DNA of 64,000 nt from assembly GCA_043802485.1 (NCBI GenBank), contig JAZDKZ010000001.1, positions 1 to 64,000 of the forward strand, in the 5' to 3' direction. Shown in pieces: positions 18,458-54,982 of the stretch. Source of the DNA: Candidatus Aenigmatarchaeota archaeon (GTDB lineage Archaea; Aenigmatarchaeota; Aenigmatarchaeia; Aenigmatarchaeales; Aenigmatarchaeaceae). The translations under genes were made by a program, and so were the position numbers. Position 1 is the stretch's first letter. The number at the start of each line of letters is the position of its first letter. The notes beneath the pieces are model-generated. The model worked only from the letters and a program-made list of their open reading frames with translations. It had not been told where the DNA came from and did no database searches.

Positions 18458-18568
18458 AGCCCCGTCGTCTAGCGGTCAAGGATGCAAGGCTTTGGAGTTG
18501 TCTCTAAAGAACTGATTAAAGGATGACGAAGTAACCTTGAGACACCAGTTCGAATCTGGTCGGGGCTA
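18458..18568 (+). tRNA. tRNA-Gln(TTG) with 38-nt intron at 37/38 (18496-18533)
   Basis: A1-U72 acceptor AGCCCCG/CGGGGCT, anticodon stem CAAGG/CCTTG, BHB helix CTTT/GAAG. Confidence 0.93.
18496..18533 (+). ncRNA. Putative intronic half box C/D guide (D'-C') for U34 of tRNA-Gln
   Basis: Guide CTCTAAAG 18502-18509, box CTGA 18512-18515, box ATGACGA 18523-18529. Confidence 0.6.
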
Positions 18569-18627
18569 CACTTTTTAACCAAAAGGCTTTTAAAGTATTG
18601 TTTCTAATGTAAATAGTTAGTGATTAC

Positions 18628-49331: not shown

Positions 49332-49486
49332 GCCGACGTGGCAGAACCAGGTTAATGCGCTAGACTTGAGGACATATGATTAGATGGCTTGACTCCGAAT
49401 GCGGCGAAATGAGGAATGATAGGCGAAATGATGTCTAGAAATCTAGTGCCCGCAAGGGCTTGCAGGTTCAAATCCTGCCGTCGGCG
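49332..49486 (+). tRNA. tRNA-Ser(TGA) with 70-nt intron at 37/38 (49371-49440)
   Basis: GCCGACG/CGTCGGC acceptor, CTAGA/TCTAG anticodon stem, GCCC-GCAA-GGGC variable arm, G73. Confidence 0.92.
49371..49440 (+). ncRNA. Intron-encoded double-guide box C/D sRNA
   Basis: C ATGATTA 49376-82, 12-nt guide, D' CCGA 49395-98, C' ATGAGGA 49409-15, 12-nt guide, D ATGA 49428-31, terminal stem GACA/TGTC. Confidence 0.8.
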
Positions 49487-49522
49487 CTTTTTCTTTAAGA
49501 AACTCAAAAACCAATAAGGTCT

Positions 49523-54031: not shown

Positions 54032-54500
54032 ATGTCGACTATAATGTTCAAAAGCGATGAAATAAGTCTGACAAAGAACAAAGAGGTTTATAGAATAAAG
54101 GTAGCTGATAGTGCTAAATATCGTGGTATTGAGCTTCCTATAAGTTTCGATGGAAAAGAGTTGTCACAATTCTCAGAAGAAGTTAAAAAACTTTACGATA
54201 ATATAAAAGTTGGTACATGGTTTGGTGTTTTGGAAGTTGAAGCTAAGAAAGGTGTTTTTTCCCTTTCAAAAGAAAGCAAAATATGGGTTGTTATCCAAAA
54301 ATGGTAAATTAACTATAAGGTCTGAACGCTCGATAACAAATAGAGCTAAACCATATGATTTATGTTTTATTGATAAAACCCTAAGAGAAACTATATTAGG
54401 TAAGAAGTTAAAGGAATACTGGATAGTCAATGATGAGATTTCTGTTGATGAAGCGCAAAAAAGGTTAGAAAAAATAACACTATCTCCAAACGTGTTTTGA
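54032..54500 (+). pseudogene. Hypothetical gene probably split by a frameshift in a T6 run (54255-54260)
   Basis: Two overlapping AT-rich ORFs (54032-54307, 54210-54500); removing one T joins them. Confidence 0.4.
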
Positions 54501-54541: not shown

Positions 54542-54673
54542 GCGGAGGTAGCCAAGTCTGGTCAAAGGCGCAGGACTTAAGATAACTTAAGTTTTGATGC
54601 AAGTTCGTCTTGCGGTGATAAGAAATCCTGTCTCTTAGTGGGTTCGTCGGTTCAAATCCGGCCCTCCGCACCA
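54542..54673 (+). tRNA. tRNA-Leu(TAA) with 43-nt intron at 37/38 (54582-54624), CCA encoded
   Basis: GCGGAGG/CCTCCGC, CAGGA/TCCTG anticodon stem, long variable arm, BHB helix CTTA/TAAG. Confidence 0.93.
54582..54624 (+). ncRNA. Putative intronic half box C/D guide (D'-C') for U34 of tRNA-Leu
   Basis: Guide CTTAAGTT 54586-93, box TTGA 54594-97, hairpin GCAAG/CTTGC, box GTGATAA 54615-21. Confidence 0.62.
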
Positions 54674-54721: not shown

Positions 54722-54982
54722 ATGCCAGAAGAGGTATTAAAAATCAAGTTCAGAGGAAAGGCCGCAGAAGACTTGGAAGAACTCAGAAAAGCTAGAGGAT
54801 TTTACTCAAACACCCAGGTTGTTGGCGCAGCTCTCAAAACATACAATGCTCTTCTAGAATATGCAGAAAAGGACCCATGCGGCACAAACCTTCTTACAGT
54901 AAAGGTTGTCAAGCCACAGACCTTATTGGACAAGATAATGTCTAGGGAGTATACAGTGGAGTTACCACTTAATTTGAGATAA
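54722..54982 (+). CDS. Small protein, possible ribbon-helix-helix DNA binder
   Basis: LKIKF...LEELRKARG.YSNTQVVGAAL pattern. Confidence 0.45.
   Translation: MPEEVLKIKFRGKAAEDLEELRKARGFYSNTQVVGAALKTYNALLEYAEKDPCGTNLLTVKVVKPQTLLDKIMSREYTVELPLNLR

Follow-up and report, generated by a model that had tools for sequence, protein, structure and literature searches.

A tRNA-Leu(UAA) intron of an Aenigmatarchaeota archaeon as a candidate half box C/D guide aimed at its own wobble uridine

The intron of the tRNA-Leu(UAA) gene of an Aenigmatarchaeota archaeon is probably a natural half guide of the box C/D type, built on a single D'/C' kink-turn, that would act in cis on the unspliced precursor to which it belongs and direct its 2'-O-methylation. 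Judged from the sequence comparisons reported here, it is very likely that this intron guides the formation of Um34 in one mode or another. In bacteria and eukaryotes, Um34 of tRNA-Leu(UAA) is introduced by TrmL and Trm7, respectively. A family of such modules, present in nine or more anticodon types, would supply a function for many DPANN introns and bears on why archaeal tRNA introns persist.

Anatomy of the tRNA-Leu(UAA) intron

The tRNA-Leu(UAA) gene has the RNA polymerase D gene on one side and L18e on the other in the window, the 64,000-nucleotide stretch of contig JAZDKZ010000001.1 that was analyzed. The source genome (769 kb, 7 contigs, 89% complete) encodes an archaeal SRP RNA and intron-rich tRNAs. 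ARAGORN failed to call the gene when run without intron search, and a low threshold returned mostly noise. A sigma-70 promoter scan was set aside as inapplicable to archaea. ORFs 54032-54307 and 54722-54982 (+ strand; 91 and 86 amino acids), which flank the tRNA gene in the rpoD-L18e ribosomal cluster, had no NCBIfam match.

Table 1. Coordinates of the tRNA-Leu(UAA) and tRNA-Gln(UUG) features in the window.
Feature	Position	Strand	Remarks
tRNA-Leu(UAA) gene	54542-54673	+	ARAGORN with intron search; Rfam RF00005, 46.5 bits
Leu(UAA) exon 1	54542-54581	+	
Leu(UAA) exon 2	54625-54673	+	
Leu(UAA) target strand G30-G37	54574-54581	+	wobble U34 at 54578; from sequence
Leu(UAA) BHB intron	54582-54624	+	43 nt; canonical 37/38 site
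Leu(UAA) guide CUUAAGUU	54586-54593	+	8 nt, antisense to positions 30-37
Leu(UAA) box D'-like UUGA	54594-54597	+	kept in kin
Leu(UAA) hairpin GCAAG/CUUGC	54599-54613	+	5 bp; closes the kink-turn
Leu(UAA) box C'-like GUGAUAA	54615-54621	+	D1:C6 pair is U-A
Leu(UAA) BHB helix intron strand UAAG and 3' splice bulge	54619-54625	+	UAAG pairs with C32-A35; from sequence and constrained folds
tRNA-Gln(UUG) gene	18458-18569	+	
Gln(UUG) intron	18496-18533	+	38 nt; paralogous module
Gln(UUG) guide	18502-18509	+	aimed at U34 (18492)
Gln(UUG) box D' CUGA	18512-18515	+	
Gln(UUG) box C' AUGACGA	18523-18529	+	

A sequence-only reading of the locus had described an intronic guide folded back on the anticodon loop and followed by a D-like box, a hairpin and a C-like box. 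We found each of these elements in place: CUUAAGUU faces G30-G37 across a 4-nt loop, UUGA, GCAAG/CUUGC and GUGAUAA follow in this order, and the guide base five nucleotides upstream of UUGA pairs with U34, as that reading had it. One refinement is required. Since the D box precedes the C box, the motif is an internal D'/C' motif. Box residues are designated here by their kink-turn position names (D1 and C6). The two departures from the CUGA/RUGAUGA consensus, U at D1 and A at C6, form a pair, and the proposal that they are compensatory is upheld by the covariation of the boxes across the survey described below. The combination UUGA/GUGAUAA fits the tandem GA and paired stem II of a kink-turn and would be expected to form one. 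The hairpin has both strands altered in kin, and a short loop takes its place in others. No second C/D motif is present in the 43-nt intron, which contains a single D'/C' motif in place of the bipartite build. The intron had no match to a C/D family of Rfam at the gathering cut-off, and a search at E up to 10 returned merely two chance-like matches to mir-27.

The BHB features of the intron comprise a CUUA/UAAG helix and an AA/A bulge (the stroke marks the 3' splice site), the outer helix being weak. The UAAG strand proper (54619-54622) overlaps the C'-like box by 3 nt. Guide fold and BHB fold are mutually exclusive because both require C32-A35, in agreement with the earlier proposal. Constrained ViennaRNA energies of the pre-tRNA, in a model that excludes kink-turn energy, were -39.7 kcal/mol for the guide fold versus -37.5 kcal/mol for the BHB fold. 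In the optimum for naked RNA in the same model (-44.4 kcal/mol), the guide helix was lengthened through the D box to 11 bp. Such a helix would need to be undone by protein, which counts against the guide reading.

The sequence-only reading had cautioned that the palindrome CUUAAG makes chance pairing easier. This caveat holds for the guide alone, since pairing over at least 8 bp was obtained in 569 of 20,000 dinucleotide shuffles. It does not hold for the full module, defined as the guide, NNGA at the D+5 register and a downstream RUGA with D1:C6 paired: with the run length observed, no shuffle out of 20,000 contained it, and when runs of at least 6 bp were accepted, 2 did. The caveat also falls because five further introns of the genome carry a module directed at position 34.

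Related modules in the genome and in other archaea

Sixteen canonical introns of the genome were checked by hand, a set that omitted genes with several introns, Tyr(GUA) and Leu(UAG) among them. Six of the 16, belonging to tRNAs with six different anticodons, aim a module at position 34 of the host tRNA: Leu(UAA), Gln(UUG), Arg(UCU), Glu(UUC), Trp(CCA) and Met(CAU). The earlier reading was silent on this intron family, including the Gln(UUG) member located in the same window (Table 1). For each of the six modules, at most 7 of 20,000 shuffles passed at its run length (7 of 20,000 dinucleotide shuffles for Gln(UUG)). The D1:C6 pairs are, in the above order, U-A, C-G, C-G, A-U, U-A and U-A, and the guides of the five introns other than Leu(UAA) are non-palindromic. 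The Trp intron is a 35-nt half module. A guide was absent from eight of the 16 introns, namely four from tRNAs with G34, three short introns (12-15 nt) from tRNAs with C34 and the Ile(UAU) intron.

The Lys(UUU) intron of the genome has a 10-bp guide, yet the D+5 rule does not lead to position 34: the box lies two bases further and aims at C32. This box reads UGUA in the genome and UUGA in three kin. The same shift by two bases, directed at C32, was often observed in Lys(UUU) and Lys(CUU) introns (contig C6:52325-52446 of the genome, which is L179, and loci L159, L207, L208, L155, L170 and L184), with a box NNUA instead of NNGA in L179, L155 and L184. Arg(CCU) introns from other families (L226, L231, L233, L238 and L241) contain a conserved guide, GGAGGUGA, followed by a D-like box; the D+5 rule assigns this guide to C31, an unusual position. 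Some Lys and Arg(CCU) introns aim at position 32 or 31 or have degenerate boxes, which counts against the guide reading. In tRNA-Glu(UUC) of the genome (contig C5:11839-11953, L177) and of L023, L024 and L257, C33 replaces the near-universal U, and the guide has a G opposite.

Introns were gathered by BLAST of 40-50 kin with seven tRNAs of the genome, from 20 fetched regions, and by a single pattern scan across named genomes, based on exon letters alone, that gave at least 120 loci. Among the 271 tRNA genes found, 209 were parsed with a 37/38 intron, of which 207 were unique; 206 remained once a misparse (L039) was dropped. The module was present with D+5 at position 34 in 79 of the 206 unique introns, a count that, as for the others of this survey, is not a probability because kin are non-independent, and to which the BLAST-derived portion contributes a bias toward look-alikes. 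Offsets of 3, 4, 6, 7, 8, 9 and 10 were found in 0, 0, 1, 11, 5, 3 and 4 introns, respectively. The filter misses look-alikes with shorter runs (L245, L249, L250 and L257, for example). The 79 modules are distributed among nine anticodon types: Leu(CAA) (24), Gln(UUG) (17), Leu(UAA) (15), Met (7), Trp (7), Glu(UUC) (3), Arg(UCU) (3), Lys(UUU) (2) and Ser(CGA) (1).

The D1:C6 pair was of the Watson-Crick type in 68 of the 79 modules (37 U-A, 15 C-G, 13 A-U and 3 G-C), versus a mean of 27 and a maximum of 40 in 5,000 shuffles. The guide tracks the anticodon of its host, with C34 or U34 as the target; in Leu(CAA), it reads CUUGAG. Guide position -1 pairs with position 30 in only 38 of the 79 modules, in agreement with the statement in PMC7229835 that position 1 is unused in substrate binding. 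Of the 79 modules, 67 close the guide duplex with a loop of 3-6 nt and 60 have a box C' that overlaps the BHB helix; the introns are typically 28-50 nt in length. Effective pairing is short, often 6-8 bp, which counts against the guide reading. Near-identical Leu(UAA) introns were present in Aenigmatarchaeota records. Conservation of the boxes and of their spacing, on which the sequence-only reading had made its claim depend, was observed in 12 of the 13 introns that the kin search gave for Leu(UAA) at 37/38, which retain the guide, the box and D+5 at U34; in the exception, L020, the box is degenerate. An alignment across isoacceptors gave nothing beyond the scripted comparison.

A module was also found in an upstream intron (approximately position 30/31) of seven further genes (four Leu(CAA), one Leu(UAA) and two Ser(UGA)). 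The order is then guide, D', C', exactly 4 nt up to position 31, and target, and D+5 is again position 34 in all seven. Five close kin (L009, L011, L012, L013 and L021) have the same Leu(UAA) module and two extra introns, in the D-arm and at approximately 30/31, indicating intron gain or loss around a retained guide intron.

The distribution of the module was assessed with 116 of the first 120 loci of the Leu scan, which is unbiased and gave at least that number (L040, L083, L092 and L111 were false anchors), grouped by record title. Among the loci listed, positives were found in 7 of 8 Aenigmatarchaeota and 1 of 1 Undinarchaeota, in 14 of 24 Leu(CAA) and none of 28 Leu(UAA) loci of Woese-, Pace- and Nanoarchaeota, in 1 of 6 Methanosarcinales-titled records and in 3 of 7 unclassified records. 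The module was absent, among these same loci, from Asgard (0 of 16), TACK (0 of 19), Micrarchaeota (0 of 5) and the two remaining loci. The module is present in Aenigmatarchaeota and Nanobdellota-type records and not in the sampled Asgard and TACK introns. One unpublished genome (G094, locus L095, a positive Leu(CAA)) is counted among the 14 and the 79 positives and in a fraction of 15 of 16 given below, and a second (G120, L070) provides one negative; the conclusions are independent of both. There is about an even chance that DPANN archaea have general self-guiding tRNA introns, with a one-kink guide for each wobble-methylated tRNA. The module would be mobile between intron positions and retargetable (34, 32 and perhaps 31), and the exclusive fold would act as a methylation checkpoint prior to splicing.

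Proposed mode of action and competing explanations

In the mechanism that we propose, the guide of the newly made transcript would fold back on the anticodon loop and thereby block the BHB splice fold. L7Ae would bind the D'/C' kink, followed by loading of Nop5 and fibrillarin, and fibrillarin would methylate the 2'-O of the base paired five nucleotides from D', namely U34. The complex would then leave, allowing the RNA to refold into the BHB and the endonuclease to excise the intron. The mature tRNA would have a ribose-methylated wobble U, possibly with more base modification, and would be expected to read UUA/UUG in a stiffer manner.

The genome contains genes for fibrillarin, for L7Ae (above the NCBIfam cut-off) and for the splicing endonuclease (contig C7:89475). 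Its Nop5 aligns to a solved archaeal Nop5 over residues 57-332, including the coiled-coil helices. No match to the SpoU family (TrmL/TrmJ) and no full-length match to FtsJ/Trm7 was found in this 89% complete genome, which has weak partial FtsJ matches only. A protein-only route to Um34 was set aside, no candidate gene having been found in the same 89% complete genome. Across 50 genomes with a sampled Leu intron, out of a planned 74, fibrillarin was found in 15 of 16 module-positive versus 21 of 34 module-negative genomes; within Leu(CAA) alone, the fractions were 15 of 16 and 11 of 13. This link is weak evidence and is confounded with anticodon type. When free-standing guides to 17 anticodon loops were sought throughout the genome, each loop had 0-7 matches, which, beyond the host introns, looked chance-like in a search run without a shuffle control. 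A pseudouridylation guide of the H/ACA type was rejected because the target base is Watson-Crick paired and because C34 targets exist in the Leu(CAA), Met and Trp modules.

Introns whose first bases differ from mature positions 38-40 provide information on the substrate: the guide pairs with the intron in 33 cases, with the mature sequence in 7 and with neither in 11. The target would therefore be the unspliced RNA. This preference is equally suited to any pre-tRNA target, including one reached in trans, and it is possible, if unlikely, that the same guide produces the same Um34 by acting, as an excised linear or circular intron or as another precursor, on a second pre-tRNA. The precedent that has been tested, Haloferax pre-tRNA-Trp, acts in trans in vitro according to PMC7994747 and PMC2584109, and the Ser(UGA) intron of the window, described below, would encode a four-box sRNA with trans-only action on 16S rRNA. 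Fold-back loops of 3-6 nt and the fixed 4-nt linker of all seven upstream introns are, in contrast, hard to explain without folding in cis. Every tRNA has its own guide, and a circle of 28-43 nt would leave little free strand for a duplex with a closed anticodon loop. Both layouts, at 37/38 and in the upstream intron, are single fold-backs, and action in cis is for this reason favored.

According to a second explanation, which is more doubtful still, the kink-turn serves as a binding site for L7Ae or the entire RNP merely to keep the precursor unspliceable or to stabilize the intron, with no methyl transfer. The constrained energies, the overlap of box C' with the BHB helix and the non-specific activity of a hemi-complex (PMC1635284) are all consistent with such a lock. 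A timing switch, however, has no need of a five-base register that stays on position 34 in nine anticodons and at both intron positions, and it leaves unexplained why the targets in the genome are U34 or C34 tRNAs of two-codon or single-codon boxes. Finally, a functionless relic, in which duplication of a palindromic anticodon loop supplied the complement and accidental AT-rich words the boxes, is highly improbable: a guide alone is not rare in shuffles and anticodon-loop duplications do occur in the Leu(UAG) gene of the genome, but the shuffle result for the full module, the five non-palindromic cases in one genome, the sharp peak of the offsets and the compensatory box changes speak against it, covariation having largely refuted this reading.

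Comparison with known guides, and other introns of the genome

The tRNA-Trp intron is the single case of an intron-encoded guide according to two reviews (PMC11408192; PMC4090602), and it is described as unique in the literature consulted, to which PMC3695527 also belongs. Action of the Haloferax tRNA-Trp guide was first proposed to be in cis and then seen in trans in vitro, and no other intronic guide is known to have been tested (PMC7994747; PMC2584109). As described in PMC7994747, PMC2584109 and the two reviews, the tRNA-Trp guide resembles the half guide proposed here in its 37/38 intron, in aiming at its own position 34 by the D+5 rule and in acting on the unspliced precursor. It differs in being long (103 nt in Haloferax), in having four boxes and a pair of guides, for C34 and U39, and in acting in trans in vitro. 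The module of the Leu(UAA) type has instead one D'/C' motif and one guide in a fold-back geometry, typically within 28-50 nt, and occurs in nine anticodon types and at two intron positions, its host here being tRNA-Leu(UAA). The Leu(UAA) module would work like a box C/D guide, and it falls, as judged from its motifs, outside both the canonical bipartite family and the tRNA-Trp intron type.

In Nanoarchaeum equitans, also a DPANN archaeon, the intron of elongator tRNA-Met gives a stable RNA that contains a single D and a single C box and has been proposed as a possible guide (Randau, 2012; PMC3491384). The available text of that paper states no target, register or family for it; this RNA may be a member of the same module family. 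Free-standing C/D sRNAs of Pyrococcus for Leu(UAA), Leu(CAA) and Met and a Haloferax tRNA-Met guide share position 34 and the same proteins, and differ in being separate genes that act in trans; the tRNA-Met guide is described as not intronic. In Pyrococcus, the known C/D targets include the wobble position (34) of Leu(UAA), Leu(CAA), Met and Trp (PMC7994747), and both Um34 and Cm34 have been seen in archaeal tRNAs (PMC7668247).

Half guides with a single C/D or C'/D' motif have been described that, like the present one, have one guide and are active in vitro (PMC1635284; PMC7229835). They are engineered or poorly conserved and have a separate substrate, whereas the modules described here are natural, conserved, archaeal and covalently joined to the target. 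Specific methylation by a single C/D motif is disputed in the same two papers: a single-motif complex was active and non-specific (PMC1635284), whereas a C'/D'-only half guide with Sulfolobus proteins methylated site-specifically in vitro, the former result being attributed to a 15-bp duplex (PMC7229835). Natural conserved modules make single-motif specificity directly testable, with recombinant proteins and a 130-nt transcript. No description of half guides in DPANN tRNA introns was found in the literature searched, chiefly openly available main texts. A preprint on Asgard tRNA introns (bioRxiv 10.64898/2026.10.13.758758) makes no mention, in its main text, of guides, boxes, kinks, methylation, DPANN or Aenigmatarchaeota. 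If confirmed, these modules would represent the first half C/D guides that are both natural and conserved, and would provide a direct selective reason to retain many tRNA introns in reduced genomes. Their design points to a compact means of programming ribose methylation in cis.

The window contains a further intron of interest. The 70-nt intron (49371-49440) of tRNA-Ser(UGA) (49332-49487, + strand) resembles a full four-box C/D sRNA (C AUGAUUA, D' CCGA, C' AUGAGGA and D AUGA). Its kin have CUGA/AUGAAGA, a double compensatory change. The conserved D' guide forms 10 of 10 Watson-Crick pairs with the 16S decoding-site helix of the genome, the D+5 base falling on the equivalent of A1408; the D guide fits either the equivalent of C1402 (9 pairs, 2 G-U) or another site in 16S rRNA. 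This intron would be an rRNA guide hosted by a tRNA intron. The 16S rRNA gene itself, on the minus strand of contig C6 (approximately 222700-221300), has 5' and 3' segments and leaves common primer motifs unmatched; it is divergent or interrupted. At C6:30642-30670, on the same contig, a second copy of the 3' end of an intronless tRNA-Leu immediately follows a coding sequence, in the manner of an integration site.
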